The translations under genes were made by a program, and so were the position numbers. A DNA stretch of 64,000 bases from a virus (lineage: Duplodnaviria; Caudoviricetes). Each line of letters opens with the position of its first letter. The stretch's first letter is position 1. The stretch spans positions 1 through 64,000 of the IMG/VR virus record IMGVR_UViG_2721755344_000002, one strand, 5' to 3'. Shown piece after piece: positions 10,175 through 52,144 of this stretch. The notes beneath the pieces are model-generated. The model ran no database searches, was not told where the DNA came from, and saw only the letters and a program-made list of their open reading frames with translations.

Positions 10175-10317
10175 CTTTCTTCGTTTTCAGCATAAGGGAA
10201 TAACCCCAGGTGAGCACTAAATTGTTCAGCGTTAAGCGAAATAGTGCTTTCTTCGTTTTCAGCATAAGGGAATAACCCCAGGTGAGCACTAAATTGTTCA
10301 GCGTTAAGCGAAATAGT
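10175..10317. repeat. 72-bp-period tandem duplication (in frame in ORF 9964..10365)
   Basis: Two perfect 71-bp copies encoding TISLNAEQFSAHLGLFPYAENEE. Confidence 0.95.
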
Positions 10318-35586: not shown

Positions 35587-36534
35587 TTTCTTTTTCTATC
35601 TGCACAAGTAGTTTCTTTTTCTTCAGTTCGGCCAGAGCTTGGGCTTGCTCTTCCCCGCAATCCAAGCAAATATCGTAACCCAATACCTTCCGCTTATCTG
35701 AAAACTCTTCTCCGCATCTATTACAAGTCGCCATCTTAAATTCCTGATTGTGGGATACCCACTAATAGAATCTGGTTTCACTTTACTATCATCATATACT
35801 TTGCTACTATTATTGGTCGTCCATGCTGTTCCCCCGTAGCTACAACCTTTCTAAACTTAACTTTTTTTACCACTGGACACCTTCTTCCAGCATCTTCCCA
35901 ATGGTTCGGCCATTTCATGCCATCAGTACACGTTTTCCAATAATAAGCGTCCCTCCGACGAGAAAAGATATGAAAACCTGATTCATACCTCAAGCGCTCA
36001 TAGTTCGACATACAATTAGGTTCTTCCTTCTTCGTTTGCCCCAAGAGGACACTGGAACGAGTATTACTTCTCTTGTTCCATACTCCTGTTTTATAAGAAA
36101 TATTATAAAACTGTGACCAATAATTCCAAAAATGGCGAGAGGAATAGTTACGATAAAACACTTTCCATCCAAACTTTTGTCTAATTGGTATAGGTTTTAC
36201 AGTGTCTAAACACATATCAAGTCACCTTCACACCAACAGAAAAACCCATTGCGGAAGTTTTGTAAATAAATATCAATTTGCCATAATCGTAAATCCAATA
36301 AGCCCCACATGAATGATAGATGTCGCAAAAAAGAAATTTTTTTTTAAGATCATCGACACTCAAAACTTTTTCCATAAAATCAATCTTTAGAAACTACTCC
36401 TCCTATTGTTTTACACTCAGTAACAAAGTTGTATCTAGTAGCTGCAGACGCTCCTTTTCTTAGTTTTAAGATAAACCAAGAGTACCCGCATTTGACGCAT
36501 CTCCAAACACCCTGACCAAATTTTTGTTCGGTTT

Positions 36535-37428
36535 TTAATTCTCCTCCGCAACCTGGACATTCCATGTGTCACCTCGTAATCTCCATATACAATTATTTTT
36601 AAGTTGATTCAAAAGTTTTCTCCTCAAAATCAAATGATTTGTTCTACACGAATTATGATCCATTGGCTTAGTAATACCTGGATAGCACTCATCAATAAGG
36701 GCATAGTTTTTAGTTCTATCGTGCTCGGCACCAACATCATATTTTTTGCCTTTGAAATCTGTTGCCACTATCAATCCTGTATCTTGTAATACATCAAGTG
36801 AGTTTGACCAAAAAACTGTTTTGAATTGCGCTTTTGCATCTGCAGCTACTGAAAATGTTTGATCAAACGGATTTTCAGACCATTTGAAAAAGCCAAAAAA
36901 TCCAGTCCATTTATAAGTTCTTATTAATGGTTTTTCCCGATCATACGAGCTTTTTATCTTGTAATTGAGACTCGTTGTAAAATACGGAATGTTCCACGCT
37001 TTAGCAGTTCCTATCAGAACCTGTAGCTTTTTGGTATATATCTCAGCGTTCAATACACTAGTACGATACGCCCATCTTGTCGGTATAGCATCAGGCAAGA
37101 TATACCTGGTCATAATTATATCGTCATCTAATAGAACACCCGCATCCTCATCCCCCATATAACAACGCTTTAATAAATTCATTCCGTGCCAGCGTAGAGC
37201 CCCAAACGGAGGCTTTCCATCTGATGAGACAAAATCATGTCCCAAAATTTCTATTTCGTAACATTCCAACAAATCTTTAAAATCCTGTAATTGCGACCTA
37301 TGGCAAAATATCTTAATCTTATTCGATTCAACTCCAAGTCGATTAACAAGTATTCTTACTGTTTTAGCACACTTTTTTGGATATTTTGAAGCAATTAAAT
37401 AGTAAATTTGGTATGCCATTTTTCTCAC
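36535..37428 (-). CDS. GT-A fold glycosyltransferase-like protein (possible DNA modification)
   Basis: G..R..LLDDDI DxD motif followed by FD...D; has its own sigma70 promoter. Confidence 0.5.
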   Translation of the reverse strand: MRKMAYQIYYLIASKYPKKCAKTVRILVNRLGVESNKIKIFCHRSQLQDFKDLLECYEIEILGHDFVSSDGKPPFGALRWHGMNLLKRCYMGDEDAGVLLDDDIIMTRYILPDAIPTRWAYRTSVLNAEIYTKKLQVLIGTAKAWNIPYFTTSLNYKIKSSYDREKPLIRTYKWTGFFGFFKWSENPFDQTFSVAADAKAQFKTVFWSNSLDVLQDTGLIVATDFKGKKYDVGAEHDRTKNYALIDECYPGITKPMDHNSCRTNHLILRRKLLNQLKNNCIWRLRGDTWNVQVAEEN

Positions 37429-37439
37429 CTCGTATAGCC

Positions 37440-37468
37440 ATTATAGCATATCCAAAATTATTTGTCAA
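37440..37468 (-). promoter_or_regulatory. sigma70-type promoter, TTGACA-17-TATAAT with extended TG
   Basis: Perfect consensus just upstream of 36535..37428. Confidence 0.85.
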
Positions 37469-38242
37469 GTCTTATTTTTGTGCAAGTCCACAAGAGACTT
37501 AAGCAATTTTATTATCTCCTCCAACTGTCGATTCATTTCCAACAGTATGTTAAAATCTTCCTGGTCCATCGCCATTTTTTATACCATCCCCAAATCAAAT
37601 GCTTCTATACCATCTGGACATTTTCTCCTATTAATCCACGCTATTTTACATCCTTTCCCTTAAGCTCCAAACTATTCCTATGAGAAGCATAAACAAACAG
37701 ATTCCTCCCCATACCCAACTAATCCAATGGACCTCTCCAACAAGAAGGAAAAGAAAACACGTGACTGTTACTCCACCAATTCCAACATATATCATACTCC
37801 TGCATATTTCTGACTTAGTCATTTTATCTCCAAATTAATCCATCTTAATTGTTTCCATTTCTCGCCCAGTAAATTTGACCTAAGATATCTTTAAACAACT
37901 TATACTCCGTTGTTTCAAAAAACAATGTTAAACCCCCAGCTTTTATATCTTCTTTAGTTGCAAACCTGTACATTTTTTCAACTAACTGTTCAGAGCTTAT
38001 CATCTAACTCCTCTTCTATTATAAATCTAACATATTCAAGGTGATAGCTAAACCAACCCTTTTCCCACATTCTATCCCATGTTTGCTGTTTGTACTCTTG
38101 ACACCAAGACTTGAAGTCCTTCTGGTACTTTTTCGGCACCTGTTTCCATAGAGCAGGAAACGGTGTATCATCCTCGTTAATCATTCTTGACAAGGCTTTT
38201 AAAAAATATTTACCATTCATACTATCCCAACCCTTTCGCAAT

Positions 38243-38271
38243 ATCATAACATAATAAAATCTATTTGTCAA
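38243..38271 (-). promoter_or_regulatory. sigma70-type promoter, TTGACA-17-TATGAT
   Basis: Read directly. Confidence 0.7.
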
Positions 38272-38330
38272 CCTGTTTTTGATTCAAAATCGACCTTCTT
38301 TAATTGCTATTAAGATAATAATCTTTTCAA

Positions 38331-39020
38331 TTATATTAGATATTTCTGAGAGCATAAGCAATCTAAATTTGTCCAAATTCCCTCGTTCCTAAGTTTTGAT
38401 CCCTTGCGTTGTCCACTTGTGGTACACAAAGGTCTAAACGGTAACCATACAGCACTATCGTTTTCGCAAACAATAATTTGACCTTTTCGACTTTTGCACC
38501 AACTGGCTAATACTTCATAATCCAAATCCTTCCCATATGGATACAATTTCTGGCCGATATAGGGAGGGTCAATAAACCATGTAGCCTCTATATCGGGGGC
38601 TATGGAATAGTCGCCGAGCAGAATTTCCCATGTACGAATTTTAGCAACGTCATCGGCTACTTTATTCCAATTCAAATTTTGATTACCTTTGAAACCACCA
38701 ACAAAATTTTTAGGAGTTGGACTACCTTGATTCAACATAAAACCTAGAAAATCTCTGGCCTCCTGAGGTTTGATATCAGGTATAGGAGCCTTTGCATCAG
38801 GATGTGGAAGATTTCTAATAAAGTCTAGATCTGAATTTTGCAACCATTTCAGCATAGAAACAATCACAGGATTTTTTTCAATTAAAATAACATGCCTACC
38901 AACACTATGTCTTAAAGCATAATTTGCTGCGCCAGAAAACGGCTCAATAATTATATTATAAATAGGGGCAGGATACTTTTTCCATATTTTTGATTTTGAA
39001 CCATAATAACTGAATATCAT
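38331..39020 (-). CDS. Dam-like (D12 class) DNA adenine methyltransferase
   Basis: YYGSKSK, EPFSGAA, FIDPPY. Confidence 0.8.
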   Translation of the reverse strand: MIFSYYGSKSKIWKKYPAPIYNIIIEPFSGAANYALRHSVGRHVILIEKNPVIVSMLKWLQNSDLDFIRNLPHPDAKAPIPDIKPQEARDFLGFMLNQGSPTPKNFVGGFKGNQNLNWNKVADDVAKIRTWEILLGDYSIAPDIEATWFIDPPYIGQKLYPYGKDLDYEVLASWCKSRKGQIIVCENDSAVWLPFRPLCTTSGQRKGSKLRNEGIWTNLDCLCSQKYLI

Positions 39021-39477
39021 ACAATGGTACTCTTCAGCATCTTAATCTCTTCTTCTAGATCTTTAATCTTAGTTTCAGCTTCAGATAATGGATGTTTTGG
39101 ACACTGTCTAATATGATCATATAGCACTTTACGTTTAACAGCATTCGTTCCAGGTGGATATCTATGGCCGCAATATACACAATTTATATACATACCACTT
39201 TGTAAATCATCAACCCATTTTTCAAGTCTAACTACTTCATTTTCAAGTTCTATTACTCTATCTGTAAGCTCTAAGTGCTCTTTCTGAACTACTGACATTT
39301 GCTTTCTCCTTTCAAGTACCCAGTACCTTCAAAACTCTTATTTTCGCAAAAATGCTACAGCTACATTTCACACAAAGATAAAATCCGCTAGGTGTTAATC
39401 TTGATCTATGCGGTCTTGTTCTACCGCCACATCTGATACATTTATATTTTGATAGTTCTGATCTATCACTACCACAA

Positions 39478-39852
39478 TCAGTTGTACACATCTTTCCCTC
39501 CATTTCCCTCTGCCCAATATCGTATCATGGTTGGAAAACTCTTGTGTGGTGTCGCCATCGGAAATAATCGTTCAATAATTTTTACTTTCTTCCCCGCCAT
39601 AAATGCCATACCAATATCAAAAAGACAACCCTCACTTTTTCCATCCCAAGCGATGTGAATTTCGTCGGCCCATAAAATACCTTTTTTATTATCGGTGCAA
39701 ATTCTAAAACCAACCGAATCATTCTGATCTGTGTCCCGTGATGGCCAGTAAACCCTATTTCCGGTAGCTTCAAGACTTTTCACATATTCTTCAAGGATTT
39801 CTTTCCAATGTACATCAATATTTCTAACTGGACAGATTAAAAAAATTTTCAT
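39478..39852 (-). CDS. Nucleoside 2-deoxyribosyltransferase-like protein
   Basis: IFLICPVR..VYWP.RD..ADEIH..S.G..FDIGMAF. Confidence 0.65.
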   Translation of the reverse strand: MKIFLICPVRNIDVHWKEILEEYVKSLEATGNRVYWPSRDTDQNDSVGFRICTDNKKGILWADEIHIAWDGKSEGCLFDIGMAFMAGKKVKIIERLFPMATPHKSFPTMIRYWAEGNGGKDVYN

Positions 39853-39912
39853 TCTACCTCTATTTTTGATTTTGAACCGTAGTAGCTAAAGATCATTATT
39901 TAAACCTTAAAA

Positions 39913-39982
39913 ATACCATACCTTACCATACCGAACCTAACCGAACCAAACCTTACCAAACCAAACCTCACCCTACCGAACT
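39913..39982 (-). repeat. GGT-NN pentamer array 3 (13 GGT units); candidate guide ncRNA
   Basis: Plus-strand ACC at 39915, 39920 ... 39975 in exact 5-bp phase with variable dinucleotides; intergenic. Confidence 0.9.
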
Positions 39983-39988
39983 TAAAAT

Positions 39989-40882
39989 TTACCACTCATA
40001 CCCATCTGAATATAATTTTAAATCGCTCTTTTCGTTTATAAGAACAAATCCATTCTTCCACTTAGAATGACTGCTTTTTACAGTACTCCCATTATAGGTC
40101 ATTGAATCTTGAGAAAACATCCCTCCGCAATCCGCTCCAATATATTTCCCACTTTGATCGTTTCCCGAACCGAAATGATGACCGTGAGCACAAATCACAT
40201 TTTTGTGTTCGATTGCTATTATATCTAAAGGAGTTTTGATTGTCTGCTTTGAATAATTGGATGGATGGCAAATAATCCAATTTTTATCTTCCGTCATAGC
40301 ATACTTAATATTTGATGGAAAAACTCTAACCCCAACCAAATCTATTGGAACTAATTGATAAAAAAGATTTTTTACATCAAAGATGCTTCCCAAAGCTCTG
40401 AAAATTCTTATATCATGGTTTCCCAAAATAAAATAGATTTTTTCAAACTGATTCAACAAACACTCGAACAATTCCCTCCCCGCTTGGAGTTCAGTATCCC
40501 AATCCACTTTTACTCCTGTATTCATCCAAATCTTAAACTGGTCTTGATCAAAGAAATCTCCAGCTATCATAAGAGTTTTAATTTTTCTAATATCTGAAAT
40601 TTCGCAGAGTAACTGAAGCCATTCTTTGCTAGTATGAGGTATATGAAAATCCGCAACAATTAAACAAGGAAGAGGAATATACATTGTATTATCTTTTATC
40701 CATTCCAACGACATTTTAATAACTGTGTCAATAGTTGGAATTTTAATAAGATTTCTCTTCTCAGCTCTCTTCAATAAATCATCTTTTGTAAACCCAGCCA
40801 CGGAACTAAATTTCAAAATTTTAGATTTATTAGAAGAGTTACTAATACTTTTTTTACATTCACTAAATTTTAGATTTTTCAT
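39989..40882 (-). CDS. Calcineurin-like metallophosphoesterase
   Basis: ADFH, GDFFD, GNHD, CH, AHGHH; GAGGTG RBS before ATG at 40882. Confidence 0.85.
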   Translation of the reverse strand: MKNLKFSECKKSISNSSNKSKILKFSSVAGFTKDDLLKRAEKRNLIKIPTIDTVIKMSLEWIKDNTMYIPLPCLIVADFHIPHTSKEWLQLLCEISDIRKIKTLMIAGDFFDQDQFKIWMNTGVKVDWDTELQAGRELFECLLNQFEKIYFILGNHDIRIFRALGSIFDVKNLFYQLVPIDLVGVRVFPSNIKYAMTEDKNWIICHPSNYSKQTIKTPLDIIAIEHKNVICAHGHHFGSGNDQSGKYIGADCGGMFSQDSMTYNGSTVKSSHSKWKNGFVLINEKSDLKLYSDGYEW

Positions 40883-40900
40883 TTTCACCTCACTAAGTTA

Positions 40901-40963
40901 TCCATACCATACCAAACCGAACCGCACCTGACCGAACCCTACCATACCCGACCAAACCACACA
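40901..40963 (-). repeat. GGT-NN pentamer array 2 (11 GGT units, ends GGAT); candidate guide ncRNA
   Basis: ACC at 40906...40956 in exact 5-bp phase. Confidence 0.9.
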
Positions 40964-40998
40964 ACAGCCTGATAAGAAGAATATTAAGAATAATTGCA

Positions 40999-41071
40999 TC
41001 CTTACCATACCATACCGAACCGAACCCCGCCTAACCATACACTACCATACCAAACCGAACCAAACCTTACC
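40999..41071 (-). repeat. GGY-NN pentamer array 1 (14 units including one GGC and one TGT, ends GGAT); candidate guide ncRNA
   Basis: ACC/GCC at 41004...41069 in exact 5-bp phase; the first unit overlaps the stop codon of the RAMP-like gene. Confidence 0.9.
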
Positions 41072-41609
41072 TAACTTCTTTTAATTCTACATCGAAACGT
41101 CCGAATCTAGGTCTCCAATCACCGATACCAATCTTATGCCCAGTAATTTCCATAACACTCTCAACTATTTGCTTTGGAATATCATCATCCACAATTATCG
41201 TAAATTCTGCTTTCCACCCCTTTTTGAAAAGGGGCCTATGAATAGCCACTCTTCCCCCAGTTCTTGGAGGTCTCCTCCCATGACTAATATGAATATCGTC
41301 CCATATTTTTTTGTTGGGAATAAATCGGATTTTATTTTCTTCAATTAAAACACCAGCTATAAAATCTCCTGTCCATTTAGTAGCACCTTTCTTAACCAAT
41401 TTAGATGCTCCAAATTTGATAGCCGCAAGAAAATGTTCGTCTGGGATATAACAACCATCCTCGTCTTTATACACAACTTCATCAACTTTACTGGTCGCAT
41501 CTGTGGCTAATGATTTAGCTCTTTTTACACCTTTTGATTCTTCTTCCGAAATGGTATACTGGTTCTGAAGATAATCGACAATCCCTATACATTTTACTTT
41601 AATTTTCAT
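41067..41609 (-). CDS. Stand-alone RAMP/Cas7-like RNA-binding protein associated with the GGT-NN arrays
   Basis: N-terminal strand KIKVKCIG; YIPDEHFLAAI (compare RAMP YIPGSSxKGAh); RPLF..GW.AEF; C-terminal Gly-rich loop GHKIGIGDWRPRFGRFDV; GGAGG RBS before ATG at 41609. Confidence 0.7.
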   Translation of the reverse strand: MKIKVKCIGIVDYLQNQYTISEEESKGVKRAKSLATDATSKVDEVVYKDEDGCYIPDEHFLAAIKFGASKLVKKGATKWTGDFIAGVLIEENKIRFIPNKKIWDDIHISHGRRPPRTGGRVAIHRPLFKKGWKAEFTIIVDDDIPKQIVESVMEITGHKIGIGDWRPRFGRFDVELKEVR

Positions 41610-41634
41610 AGTATCCTCCATTTAATTTAATATT

Positions 41635-41664
41635 ATTATAACACAATTAAAAAGGTTTTGTCAA
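41635..41664 (-). promoter_or_regulatory. sigma70-type promoter, TTGACA-18-TATAAT, driving the RAMP-like gene and arrays
   Basis: Perfect hexamers 26 bp upstream of ATG 41609. Confidence 0.85.
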
Positions 41665-41665
41665 C

Positions 41666-42982
41666 TCAGCCCCACTCCTTTTGAACATTCTGAGTTCTTT
41701 TGGTTGAAAGTTCCGAATATCCCAAATCAACCCCAAACCCGCGCCTGCCTAACTTTTCCGCAACTCTGATTGTAGTACCGGATCCAGCAAACGGGTCTAA
41801 TACCGAACCTGCTATCCAACCTGCATTACATCCGCAGTCCGTTAGCTCGACTAACTTCTTCATATACTGACCCATATTCTTTTCTTTAAATTCTCTCGGG
41901 TCTCGAGGGTCGGGTCTAGGCTTATTAACTTTCGGATCATAATCACCTGAATATTCTGAATCATAAATTTTCTCTCTCGGCTTCCCACATTTCTTACAAA
42001 TAAACTCTGGGACACCAGCCAAAATCATAGGTCGAACAAGATCCTCGGGAAATATTGCGAAATGAGCCTCTCTAACTCCTTTTGTAGGAATCTTCCACAC
42101 ACATCGTTTATTACGACCTAGAGGGTTAAGATTATTAAAAATCCTTTGTCTTACTTTAACACCTCCGCTCACGCCTTCGGAATCATAATCTTTCCATCCC
42201 CTTCCCCCCTCATCATTTCCAGCTCTTGCATCATTGAGCGTAACAGAAGACATTGGCTCAAATTGCTGGTCAAAGAAATAGTCTTTCTTCTTAGCAAAGA
42301 AAAATACAGGCTCCCAGTCGACCGTAAACCTATCTTTTACGCTGTGAGGTAAGGTATTCGGTTTATGCCAAACAATTTTATTCCTAAGTATCCATCCTCT
42401 GTTTAACATCTCGATCACAAATCTTTCCGGAATACCTAACAAAGACTTTGGGGCAAACTTTTGAGAAGGAGGAGCTCCAAATCCGCCTATACCAACAGGA
42501 CGAGAATCAATTCCTCGAGGACCTTTTCTTTGAGTACCAGGTTTCTTTCCCTGATCACCTCCACTCCCTCCGTAACTATCTGATAAATTCACAAAAATTA
42601 TACCATCGTCTCTCAATACTCTTTTCACTTCATCAAATATATCGCACAAGTGCCTGATAAAGTCATCATAATGAGACTCGCATCCTAACTGCCCTTTCCA
42701 TGCGCCACACTTAGTACAATTTGAACGAGAACCATATTCAATTTTTTGTGCTTTAGGTGGCGGTCGATCTCCATACATTGAGTTTTGTGTTCCACCAGCT
42801 CTCATTCGATAATCAAAAGCCAGCTCTTCTGTAACCCAATCGTGGGGGCAATTCGGGGACCCGTCCCAAATCACATCTGGAATATCATACTTTCTGAGAG
42901 CGTAATACGGCGGGGAAGTGATAACGCAATTTATTGACTTATCCGCAAGCGGAATATGCCTTGCATCACAGTTAAATATCAT
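41666..42982 (-). CDS. Beta-class N4/N6 DNA methyltransferase with Cys-rich inserts
   Basis: TSPPY, W.KPN, HFAIFP, VLDPFAGSGTT. Confidence 0.9.
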   Translation of the reverse strand: MIFNCDARHIPLADKSINCVITSPPYYALRKYDIPDVIWDGSPNCPHDWVTEELAFDYRMRAGGTQNSMYGDRPPPKAQKIEYGSRSNCTKCGAWKGQLGCESHYDDFIRHLCDIFDEVKRVLRDDGIIFVNLSDSYGGSGGDQGKKPGTQRKGPRGIDSRPVGIGGFGAPPSQKFAPKSLLGIPERFVIEMLNRGWILRNKIVWHKPNTLPHSVKDRFTVDWEPVFFFAKKKDYFFDQQFEPMSSVTLNDARAGNDEGGRGWKDYDSEGVSGGVKVRQRIFNNLNPLGRNKRCVWKIPTKGVREAHFAIFPEDLVRPMILAGVPEFICKKCGKPREKIYDSEYSGDYDPKVNKPRPDPRDPREFKEKNMGQYMKKLVELTDCGCNAGWIAGSVLDPFAGSGTTIRVAEKLGRRGFGVDLGYSELSTKRTQNVQKEWG

Positions 42983-43006
42983 CCTACGCTTTCTAAATTT
43001 GGTCTT

Positions 43007-43204
43007 TTATTCCACCACTACATTGATTGCTTGTGGACCTTTGGGACCTTCTTGAATCTCGAAATCTACCTTGTCGCCTTCGTTCAGGGATTTAAAACCC
43101 TCCCTCTGAATAGCTGAGAAGTGAACGAATACATCGCTACCATCTTCTCTGGAAATAAATCCGAAACCCTTCTTCTCGTTAAACCACTTAACACTACCTT
43201 TCGT
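43007..43204 (-). CDS. csp: Cold-shock protein (CspA family), apparent ACG start
   Basis: [34 protein letters not shown]; AAAGGAGGTG RBS 8 nt before ACG at 43204. Confidence 0.9.
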
Positions 43205-43229
43205 AAATATCACCTCCTTTCTATTTTTA

Positions 43230-43322
43230 TGGGGACAGGCGGGGGACATAACGGACTCAAACCGAGTTCTTGGTATAACTTCACCCCCGAGGAACCTGAA
43301 CCTGCTTTCGCCACTGTCCCCA
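43230..43322 (-). ncRNA. Structured, partly tRNA-like element upstream of csp
   Basis: GGGGACAG/CTGTCCCC closing stem, CGGGGG/CCCCCG inner stem, CGG-TTTGAGT-CCG T-loop-like hairpin. Confidence 0.4.
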
Positions 43323-43384
43323 CTAATATTTCACCTTCTATCATCGTCACTAAAATTCACTAGAACTCCCTGAATACTTTCTCT

Positions 43385-43981
43385 TCATACTTCGTCCCCC
43401 CAAACTTCCCACTTTTCATCTCTTTTCCTAGCAAAAAGTTCAATTCTTTTTCCTATAGGATATAAATCTTCAATCATCTTCCTAAACTTAGGAGGTTTCT
43501 CGGAATGTTTACCTCTATGTATTGAGACAACACTTGGATATAATTTCCGACGGTCTGGCAGGCAACTTCCTTTAGTAGCTACCAATAAAAACTCGTGACG
43601 CAACGAGTTGTAGTGAGCGAAATTGTGAGTCATCTTATCCCAAACGAACGAACTTTTGTATTTGAACCCCCAAGCATTAATTACCTTAAAAGCATCTTCC
43701 AGTAATGGAGAAGTTACCCAAAGAAATAAAACAGCATTATCTTCTGTTCGTATCTTTAAATTACAAATTTCTTCAAGACTCATCGTTCCATAATGATGCT
43801 CTGCTGCTCCATATCCATCTACTAGTTTATCACCATATTGCCAAGGCGGGTCAGCATAAACCACACGAAATTTATCGCTGGAAAGAGATTTATTTGTTTT
43901 TTCTCTTATATCATCTTGAAAAAATGTATCTTGATTAGGATTCTTAATCCTGCGCTTAGGAAATTTTTTTGATAGTTGCAT
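43385..43981 (-). CDS. MT-A70 family adenine methyltransferase
   Basis: YADPPW, LFLW.T, WGF.YK, HE.LL..TKG, HSEKP, IELFAR..W..WGDE. Confidence 0.92.
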   Translation of the reverse strand: MQLSKKFPKRRIKNPNQDTFFQDDIREKTNKSLSSDKFRVVYADPPWQYGDKLVDGYGAAEHHYGTMSLEEICNLKIRTEDNAVLFLWVTSPLLEDAFKVINAWGFKYKSSFVWDKMTHNFAHYNSLRHEFLLVATKGSCLPDRRKLYPSVVSIHRGKHSEKPPKFRKMIEDLYPIGKRIELFARKRDEKWEVWGDEV

Positions 43982-45205
43982 TCTACTCCGAGTTTAATCC
44001 CAAATCGAATGATTCTTTATACCAATCGGGCACACTTGACCTTATCTCTTCTATATTATGTGGTTTTCCCACATTAAACCCTCTTCCCAAAAGCCACCAA
44101 ACCATTTCGGTACTATTAAAATATACCCTACCCGTAGATTTTATTCCACCTTCTGGCTCAATATTACCGGTATCCAATTCCCAATCAGGAATTTTTACTA
44201 TAACTGAAAGTTCGTCTGCAAACTGGGATGTACCTTCCTTACTTTTCAATATACAAAATACTCCTGGTTCTACAACTAGATCATATCCTTTTAATTCAAA
44301 AAATTTGTCATGGAAATCATCTTTATTTTTAACCAATACTCTCACATATAACTTAGAATGTTTCGCCAGATAACCAAGAGTTTTATAAAAATTGTTGCTG
44401 TCGGTAAACAAAAATTCCTTTCGATTATAGGAATTTCCTTTGCGAGCATCAGCCCTTCTCGACTTATTCTTATCATCACTAAAATTTTTTAAATATCTTT
44501 CGTTCGTATTTTCTAATAAAACCTGCGGAGAAATAGAAGTTCTAATTTCTTCCCCATCTTTTCCTCGTCTTACTATAACTACCTCATCGTTTGTGATAGA
44601 CTCAATCGTATAATACCCCGAGTTATCCATGTAAGTTTCGCCTACCCGCAAACCTAAAATCTTAATCTCTGCTAATTTGTATTCTGCAAAGCTGTCAAAA
44701 TCGTCCCTGTCTAGTGCAATATCTTTATCTTCTTCATCATTTAAATTTATTTCTTTTACCTCTTTCACATCTTCTTTTACCTCAACATTTTCCATTTTTT
44801 CTCTCCTCCCGTATCATTATTTTCATAACATCATTCTACATAGATATCTTCTCCACTCTCTATCGCTTCTTTAGCTTGAATCCAACCTTCAACTTGGCAA
44901 CTGTTCTCTTTATAGTTTAGTTTCTTCTCTTCGATCTTCTCATAGAAAATAGCAACTCTTAACGCAGATAATAAATTTTCTCGCAATATTTTCATCATTT
45001 AAAAACTATTGCCTCTTAAACCTAGCCGGTGTGTGTTGGTCATTCCAAATAGTCTGCCCAAAAGCGTAACGTATGGCCTGAGATATAATAACTCTCATAA
45101 ACCAGACTCCCCCTAATGAAGCAATACAAAGAAGAACATACAAAATAGCATCCATTGAACTCTTTTTAGTTTCCATCTCATACTCCTTTCATTTAATTTA
45201 TAATT

Positions 45206-45234
45206 ATCATATCACAAAAAAAGGAGATTGTCAA
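45206..45234 (-). promoter_or_regulatory. sigma70-type promoter, TTGACA-17-TATGAT
   Basis: Read directly; intergenic. Confidence 0.7.
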
Positions 45235-45427
45235 GCTATATTTTATAAATAATTCGTATGTAATATCAAATACTTAGCTTGTTGAAAATCAACTTTTGCC
45301 GTAAGGAATTGATTCATTACACCGCCCGCAAATTGGACAGTAACAAGTCCATCCAGCTAAAACTGCACCGCACCTTGAACAATAATCATATCTTGGAATC
45401 ATAGTCAGGGTCTCACTTTCCCTCCTT

Positions 45428-46480
45428 TCACTTAACCATACAAACCACATCTTCCCAATCTATTCTAGGAGCGCCTTTCTTTTCCTGTAATCTTCGGAAA
45501 AAGCTTTTTCTCTCTTTGGTAAATTCAGCACCGTCAAATGCAGTTTGAGGATCATTATTTACTAACATTGCATAATGCCAACATACTATTTTAAAACCAA
45601 CAGACTCACATAAAGAAGCCCACGTATCAGAAAAATTAATTCTAGTCTTATTCCTTATATAATCCTTTGTAACCCAAATTGCATGCCCATCAGGTTTTAA
45701 CAAATTATAGCATTCTTGAATTATCTCACGAGAAGCCAACCAAAAGTCATCGCCAGCTATGCTACCCAAATTATCTTTATTATCTTTATTGTACCCTTCC
45801 CACGTTTTATTTTTACGATCTATTTTTCTTTGCTCTCTATCTGCTTGCTTAGATGAGCAAATTTCCGATGCTCCGTATGGAGGACTCGACATTATCAAAT
45901 CTGCCTTCATATTAGAAAGATTTCCTGGAGTACAACCGTAGGCATTTTGATAACGTAATTGACCGCATCCTATTCTACCATGCCCCGCTTTTGTTGCTAA
46001 TTCTTGACGTCTTGCATGGTTTTCAGGTTTATCACTCCCAGACAAACTATTTGCATAAGGAGGACTCGACATTACCAAATCAGCCTTATCAATCAGCTCC
46101 TTTAACTTTCTTGAATCCCCTTGAATAATTTTTGCTGTTCCTCTATATAGATGGAAAGGACGGCTTTCGCAAAGTTCCTTATCCAGTCCTTCCCACTTTT
46201 TAATATTTTTTCTGCCTAATTCTACAAATTTTTTCTCGATCTCTATTCCTATCCAATGTGCCCCTCTCGTCATAGCACCAAAACCTCCCAATGCTACTCC
46301 TCCAAACGGGTCGAGAACAATGTTGCCCTTCTTCAACCATTCATTATCAACAGCATGATTGTATATCTTCTCAACTAAGGCACAGCTAAACTTTGCTGGA
46401 TGACAAAAAGCATCACTAACTATGGAATCTTTCCATCCGGTTTCGTAACAATTCCTCCATACATCTGTCTCAAATATCAA
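45428..46480 (-). CDS. DNA amino-methyltransferase with a duplicated SPPY motif
   Basis: HPAKF, VLDPFGG, GIEIE, GDSR, ADL.MSSPPY x2, LKPDG. Confidence 0.85.
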   Translation of the reverse strand: MIFETDVWRNCYETGWKDSIVSDAFCHPAKFSCALVEKIYNHAVDNEWLKKGNIVLDPFGGVALGGFGAMTRGAHWIGIEIEKKFVELGRKNIKKWEGLDKELCESRPFHLYRGTAKIIQGDSRKLKELIDKADLVMSSPPYANSLSGSDKPENHARRQELATKAGHGRIGCGQLRYQNAYGCTPGNLSNMKADLIMSSPPYGASEICSSKQADREQRKIDRKNKTWEGYNKDNKDNLGSIAGDDFWLASREIIQECYNLLKPDGHAIWVTKDYIRNKTRINFSDTWASLCESVGFKIVCWHYAMLVNNDPQTAFDGAEFTKERKSFFRRLQEKKGAPRIDWEDVVCMVK

Positions 46481-52073: not shown

Positions 52074-52144
52074 AGCCCGTAGGAGGAATCGAACCCCCTT
52101 CTGATGGGTACAAACCATCAGCTCTGCCATTGAGCTACACGGGC
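52074..52144 (-). tRNA. tRNA-Thr (anticodon UGU), CCA not encoded
   Basis: Cloverleaf GCCCGTG/TACGGGC, GCTC/GAGC, GATGG-TTTGTAC-CCATC, GGGGG-TTCGATT-CCTCC. Confidence 0.88.

Follow-up and report, generated by a model that had tools for sequence, protein, structure and literature searches.

Do a short gene of an uncultured tailed phage and the runs of GGT triplets, separated by variable dinucleotides, that follow it form an RNA-guided system, and if so, of which class? The question is raised by positions 39,913 to 41,664 of a stretch of 64,000 nucleotides (hereafter the window), which corresponds to positions 1 to 64,000 of the record IMGVR_UViG_2721755344_000002 (114,307 bp as a whole). The viral origin of this record is indicated by its portal and clamp-loader genes and by its entry in IMG/VR. 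An earlier note on the same DNA, made from its letters alone, had proposed a lone RAMP/Cas7-like gene accompanied by three phased GGT-NN guide arrays, and had pointed to a report of phage "VIPR" systems with GGY/NN RNAs that the locus might match. This report does exist and describes the same architecture. The analysis presented here indicates that the locus is almost certainly a VIPR system carried by a phage of about 114 kb. It belongs to an already published system class, as a divergent member, and does not open a new category.

VIPR (Viral Interference Programmable Repeat) was described in 2026 preprints (bioRxiv 10.64898/2026.04.26.720920 and 10.64898/2026.04.26.720927). According to the accessible text, VIPR loci contain the gene of a minimal RAMP protein, Vipr, along with guide RNAs (vrRNAs) and, in most cases, a single accessory gene (vap); each vrRNA strings together 9-16 YNNGG repeats with a constant GGY and a hypervariable NN (10.64898/2026.04.26.720920). 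The NN dinucleotides are reported to read double-stranded DNA with one base skipped between them, the skips falling mostly on codon wobble positions, and the natural targets are given as competing phages and satellites (10.64898/2026.04.26.720920). The same text counts seven VIPR types and six vap families, with a variable array architecture (10.64898/2026.04.26.720920). The characterised system, the Type II VIPR of Escherichia phage SUSP1, is described as binding double-stranded DNA and silencing from either strand, and its vrRNAs as being capped by an invariable structured, pseudoknotted 3' tail (10.64898/2026.04.26.720920 and.720927). VIPR has also been proposed as the ancestor of CRISPR RAMPs.

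The Vipr protein of the window

The 180-aa protein encoded by the first gene of the locus matches SUSP1 Vipr (PDB 36pp_D, E=7e-12), with which it shares 29% identity over residues 3-176, i.e. 97% of the length. It also matches phrog_4652 (7e-20) and falls in no Pfam family. An exhaustive HMMER search gathered 1011 cluster representatives of the Vipr family at E<=1e-3. An AlphaFold2 model built from 82 family members reached a pLDDT (predicted local distance difference test) of 94.3, and its closest PDB folds according to Foldseek are type VII Cas7, Csm3 and Cmr4 (E from 2e-6 to 1e-4, TM 0.5-0.59). On the basis of this model, the protein can confidently be considered a minimal RAMP with a Cas7/Csm3-like fold. 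Both the homology to SUSP1 Vipr and the structural comparison, which had been suggested as a check and which returned Cas7, Csm3 and Cmr4 as top matches, bear out the RAMP/Cas7-like identity previously assigned to it.

The residues reported to hold the GGY or the skipped base of the target in SUSP1 are H17, K33, E71, R138, D177, W178 and R179 (structural preprint, accessible text). All but one of these contacts are kept in the protein of the window: D164, W165 and R166 correspond to D177, W178 and R179, R125 to R138, E58 to E71 and K32 to K33. The exception is H17, whose place is taken by N16, asparagine being the majority residue at this position in the family. The segment GIGDWRPRFGRF, in which the earlier note saw a C-terminal glycine-rich loop typical of RAMPs, is indeed the G-loop, and its D-W-R correspond to the published GGY contacts D177/W178/R179. 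The idea that each subunit grips one GGU is upheld only in part by the published structure, as far as its text goes: there is one protomer per repeat, but two neighbouring protomers hold each GGY between them.

The vrRNA arrays

A pentamer scan recovered three arrays of 11-14 units, which lies inside the published range of 9-16, with exactly the NN strings listed earlier. GGT makes up 36 of the 38 units, the other two being a TGT and a GGC. The per-position entropy over the units is 0.18, 0 and 0.18 bits for the scaffold and 1.56 and 1.85 bits for the two N positions. The first unit of array 1, GGTAA, includes the TAA stop codon of vipr and, as had also been noticed, arrays 1 and 2 are both followed by GGAT (GGATG and GGATA). 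The three arrays have nothing in common at their 3' ends but the last units, GGTATGGTAT. Fifty shuffles of the window yielded no array of at least five GGY-NN units, and no other GGY-NN array was found in the entire 114,307-bp record. Neither a hammerhead ribozyme nor any other Rfam family was detected in or near the locus. The scan also caught, outside the window (G000 107774-107828), a 15-nt tandem repeat, GGCTTGGTTTCTACA, present in about 3.7 copies, which is not a pentamer array.

Related loci

Same-strand GGY-NN arrays stand beside the vipr homolog in all the related loci whose DNA could be read (7/7: L001, L002, L003, L007, L008, L009 and L010), an association that had been proposed as a check on the system; their NN strings differ from those of the window. 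Moreover, the locus is not an assembly artefact, since it recurs in contig L017, assembled independently from a different sample, where it differs by two single-nucleotide polymorphisms and has identical arrays.

The array architecture of these relatives is varied. In L007 (3685-5209), arrays lie both upstream and downstream of vipr (39% identity), with at least seven tracts; the downstream tracts are separated by AT-rich spacers of about 40 nt in which AATAAAT..TTGAGAA motifs occur, possible promoters or tails of the individual guides. L010 (1609-2007) displays five consecutive arrays upstream of its Vipr homolog, four of which end with GGCAC and one with GGTGC; this terminal unit is specific to the locus and can be compared with the GGTATGGTAT ending of the window. 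In L015 (460-1564), a Vipr homolog of 36% identity is directly preceded by an overlapping gene resembling RNase T and DEDD exonucleases, which may be another accessory type.

A metallophosphoesterase as probable partner

The RAMP gene of the window is not strictly lone, contrary to the earlier description, since a conserved gene encoding a calcineurin-like metallophosphoesterase sits between arrays 2 and 3. Its product matches PF00149 (5.4e-8) and phrog_221 (3e-16). The order vipr-arrays-metallophosphoesterase (about 300 aa) is kept in two relatives, the enzyme gene having the same position and strand: in L002, Vipr is 54% and the phosphoesterase 63% identical to those of the window, and in L007 the values are 39% and 36%. 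Among these two, only L002 has a further array 3' of the enzyme gene. In a fourth sequence, the P0009 contig, a 312-aa gene follows vipr as well.

All five metallophosphoesterase motifs are invariant (D78-x-H80, G108-D109, G154-N155-H156-D157, H206 and G234-H235-H236) and, to judge from these motifs, the active site is intact. The fold model of the enzyme is of only moderate quality (pLDDT 64.5), and Foldseek relates it to PP1, MJ0936 and LpxH, i.e. to generic members of the fold; an assignment specifically to Mre11/SbcD is not backed by these matches. Searches against PDB profiles and PADLOC gave no match and those against NCBIfam only sub-threshold matches. None of the cultured phages with a Vipr homolog carries this gene. 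The accessories named in the accessible text of the VIPR papers are of the DNA-binding, HNH and helicase kinds; a phosphoesterase is not among them. As far as sequence and synteny indicate, the metallophosphoesterase is a conserved, clade-specific, vap-like accessory partner of this Vipr clade. The closest relatives of the clade come only from metagenome assemblies, so that it may have escaped the published survey, which was NCBI-based.

Candidate targets of the guides

The targets of the three guides were sought with the published NN-x-NN rule, with a 1-nt skip. The own genome of the phage offers no self-target: the best scores (20/28, 16/22 and 20/26 for guides 1, 2 and 3) equal the background obtained with other skip lengths. 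Cross-targeting among all related loci and the phage genome is likewise at background (scores of 0.6-0.8).

Guide 2 has one exact match (22/22) in the viral contig collection, at L012:11379-11410 (IMGVR_UViG_3300025251_001757). From composition, the per-site probability of such a match is about 1e-13, and about 0.01-0.02 matches would be expected by chance over about 1e11 searchable positions, a rough assumed size of the viral collection. A search of the far larger collection of prokaryotic genomes with the full pattern returned no match. The site covers ATT, ATG and the next nine codons of a gene encoding a predicted membrane/coiled-coil protein of 94 aa, located 26 nt downstream of an intrinsic terminator, and every skipped base is a codon third position. 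The targeted contig is unrelated to the phage of the window except for a distant ribonucleotide reductase. If the GGATA unit is counted, its TA matches as well, which extends the match on the 3' side to 24/24; adding the degenerate GCT and TGT units at the 5' end did not improve it. Globally, the gapped guide inferred from the letters agrees with the published 1-nt-skip code and with this perfect target.

Guide 3 (units 4-13) has a single match among the viral contigs, L013:5582-5610, located on the ATG and first codons of a 99-aa open reading frame just after a portal gene, again in wobble register. This match is a lead only, because the AT-rich pattern makes several chance matches expected; no match was found for units 1-10 in viral contigs or for the full length in metagenome contigs. 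The candidate target genes of guides 2 and 3 have neither a PHROG family nor a homolog in cultured phages. Both candidate sites are matched by a guide in antisense orientation relative to the mRNA, its unit 10 pairing with the AT of the start codon; two cases are too few to generalise. These matches suggest that the guides are directed against other phages, and there is a weak indication that guide 3, too, targets a gene of another phage, the one adjoining the portal gene.

Comparison with known systems

The locus resembles the SUSP1 VIPR in having a homologous full-length Vipr with conserved GGY-binding and skip-base residues, GGY-NN vrRNAs on the vipr strand and a phage location devoid of cas genes and CRISPR repeats. 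It also resembles it in lacking a self-target and in having a predicted foreign-phage target that obeys the 1-nt-skip rule with skips at wobble positions. It differs from it in three respects: its vrRNAs are devoid of a structured or pseudoknotted 3' tail, its accessory protein is a metallophosphoesterase of 297 aa, unrelated to the 146-aa product of the neighbouring gene in SUSP1 and not a DNA-binding Vap1, and its arrays are interleaved with the accessory gene, apparently under one common promoter. The accessory is an enzyme and not a DNA-binding protein, as in the nuclease- or helicase-associated VIPR types III-V, but the accessible text names HNH nucleases and helicases for these types, not calcineurin-like phosphoesterases.

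The RRM (RNA recognition motif) core, the thumb, the glycine-rich loop and the fixed-period polymerisation on RNA are shared with Cas7, Csm3, Cmr4 and type VII Cas7. However, unlike class 1 CRISPR-Cas systems, the locus has no repeat-spacer array, no cas1 or cas2, no large or small subunit and no Cas6, and VIPR has a 5-nt period of which 2 nt are read out, against a period of 6 nt with 5 nt read out in the Cas7-type backbone. No CRISPR repeat family was found in the window, in agreement with what had been noted; within 36000-46000, direct-repeat families are limited to the pentamer tracts and one pair of 36 nt, and the flanking genes that were scanned encode DNA methyltransferases, the phosphoesterase and small unassigned products.

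Organization of the locus

All elements of the locus lie on the minus strand, in the order promoter, vipr, array 1, array 2, metallophosphoesterase gene and array 3 (Table 1). The perfect TTGACA-18-TATAAT promoter and the 180-aa gene reported earlier were both recovered, the former with an additional TG extension and the latter with a ribosome-binding site. No terminator-like site was found on the minus strand within 39400-42000, and the promoter probably drives the whole vipr-array-phosphoesterase-array operon.

Table 1. Features of the VIPR locus (positions in the window)
Feature	Position	Strand	Description
Promoter	41635..41664	-	TTGACA-18 nt-TG-TATAAT; sigma-70-type consensus, 12/12 match, TG extension
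vipr	41067..41609	-	180-aa open reading frame; ribosome-binding site GGAGGA
vrRNA array 1	41002..41071	-	14 GGY-NN units including one TGT and one GGC; followed by GGATG
Spacer between arrays 1 and 2	40959..41001	-	43 nt, AT-rich; minimum free energy -3 kcal/mol, z=0.69 (fold not significant)
vrRNA array 2	40904..40958	-	11 canonical GGT-NN units; followed by GGATA, then the phosphoesterase ribosome-binding site
Metallophosphoesterase gene	39989..40882	-	297 aa, calcineurin-like, PF00149
vrRNA array 3	39913..39977	-	13 GGT-NN units directly 3' of the phosphoesterase stop codon; followed by a T-run

Alternative explanations

The assignment to VIPR has to be weighed against the possibility that the pentamer tracts are an ordinary microsatellite or structural DNA (G-rich curved or quadruplex-prone) devoid of guide function. 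They are, after all, short-period tandem repeats, but their scaffold stays fixed while NN varies, all of them lie on one strand and adjoin a Vipr homolog, none occurs elsewhere in the 114 kb, the association of vipr with arrays holds in every relative examined and a perfect gapped counterpart of the array 2 NN string exists elsewhere. Such an explanation is hardly credible, and the fixed scaffold, the high-entropy NN and the match of array 2 sustain the earlier argument that NN probably carries information where a microsatellite would have been homogenised. It is also improbable, although somewhat less so, that the locus is a system of the VIPR family that acts on mRNA, its guides being antisense to the translation-initiation region and blocking translation or recruiting the phosphoesterase to RNA. 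This would fit the orientation of the guide in both candidate targets, where it reaches from the start codon over the next nine codons, with unit 10 paired to the AT of ATG. However, this geometry rests on two matches, one of them compatible with chance, the characterised SUSP1 VIPR is reported to bind double-stranded DNA and to silence from either strand, and the residue contacting the skipped DNA base, K32, is conserved. More plausible than either, but still unlikely, is the view that the metallophosphoesterase is an unrelated passenger inside the array region, with no role in VIPR. Its fold is generic and unmatched in PADLOC, no such vap is named in the accessible text of the VIPR papers, the relative L015 has a vipr homolog without it, and phage genomes are mosaic, a duplicated gene start of 36 nt just downstream testifying to local insertion activity. 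Against this stand the unchanged position and strand of the gene in three loci, despite Vipr identities of only 39-54%, the vrRNA arrays on both sides of it in two of these three, a conservation exceeding that of Vipr in the comparison with L002 (63% vs 54%) and the invariant catalytic motifs.

Several observations weigh against a functional VIPR system of the kind favoured here. The vrRNAs lack a structured 3' tail, no common downstream sequence being found and the fold z-scores being 0.3-1.5; nevertheless, this does not exclude membership, because architectures are said to vary between types in the preprint (accessible text). Guide 1 has no match, whether units 1-10, units 5-14 or the full length with unit 7 masked are searched in viral contigs, the full length in metagenome contigs or units 1-12 in genome contigs. 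The chance estimate for guide 2 depends on the approximated size of the viral collection, and guide 3 matches at only 23/26 over all units and is very AT-rich, with 2-20 chance matches expected for its 20-base core. Lastly, the role of the phosphoesterase rests on synteny in three loci only, and in L015, which is more distantly related, an RNase T-like gene stands next to vipr in place of a phosphoesterase gene. With these reservations, the identification of the locus as a VIPR system is retained. It is possible, but rather doubtful, that the clade formed by the window, L002, L007 and probably the P0009 contig is an unclassified VIPR subtype. Such a subtype would be defined by tail-less vrRNAs carried in the operon mRNA, by a catalytically intact metallophosphoesterase (effector or involved in vrRNA maturation) that replaces the DNA-binding Vap, and by guides antisense to the start codon and first nine or so codons of rival-phage genes.

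Proposed mechanism

The layout suggests that one strong promoter would transcribe vipr, two vrRNA tracts, the metallophosphoesterase gene and the third tract, probably as a single RNA. By homology to the SUSP1 complex, Vipr protomers would polymerise on the GGY-NN tracts, one per pentamer, sequestering GGY and exposing NN. If the SUSP1 work can be extended to this clade, the filament would read double-stranded DNA by an NN-x-NN-x code, via triplex or R-loop formation, and would block transcription. The arrangement of the tracts is consistent with tail-less vrRNAs that would be either released from the polycistronic RNA or protected by the Vipr coat. The metallophosphoesterase could be an effector acting on the bound target, or could release or trim vrRNAs from the operon transcript.

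Genomic surroundings

Orphan DNA methyltransferase genes flank the VIPR locus, a PF01555 N6/N4 methyltransferase gene immediately upstream (41666-42982) and a phrog_56 methyltransferase gene downstream (38331-39020). A 36-nt direct repeat with 86% identity lies at 38985-39020 and 39861-39896; the copy next to array 3, on its downstream side, repeats the opening 12 codons of the downstream methyltransferase gene and runs into a stop after 15 codons. Between the copies lie about 840 bp with three small open reading frames, and the arrangement looks like an insertion scar. Elsewhere in the window, a 72-nt unit is perfectly duplicated in tandem at 10175-10317 (2.0 copies, 100% identity), and a single tRNA gene lies on the minus strand at 52074-52144 (60.9 bits).

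Significance

VIPR is a months-old class of RNA-guided DNA binders, and well-resolved natural loci help to chart its diversity. The locus described here offers a compact three-guide system with a concrete predicted natural target, a gene start in a rival phage. Its guides lack the tail thought to cap vrRNAs, and its metallophosphoesterase partner is not mentioned in the accessible text of the VIPR papers. If this enzyme is functional, it would represent a new effector or a new maturation mode for VIPR; otherwise, the locus would be an ordinary further member of the class.

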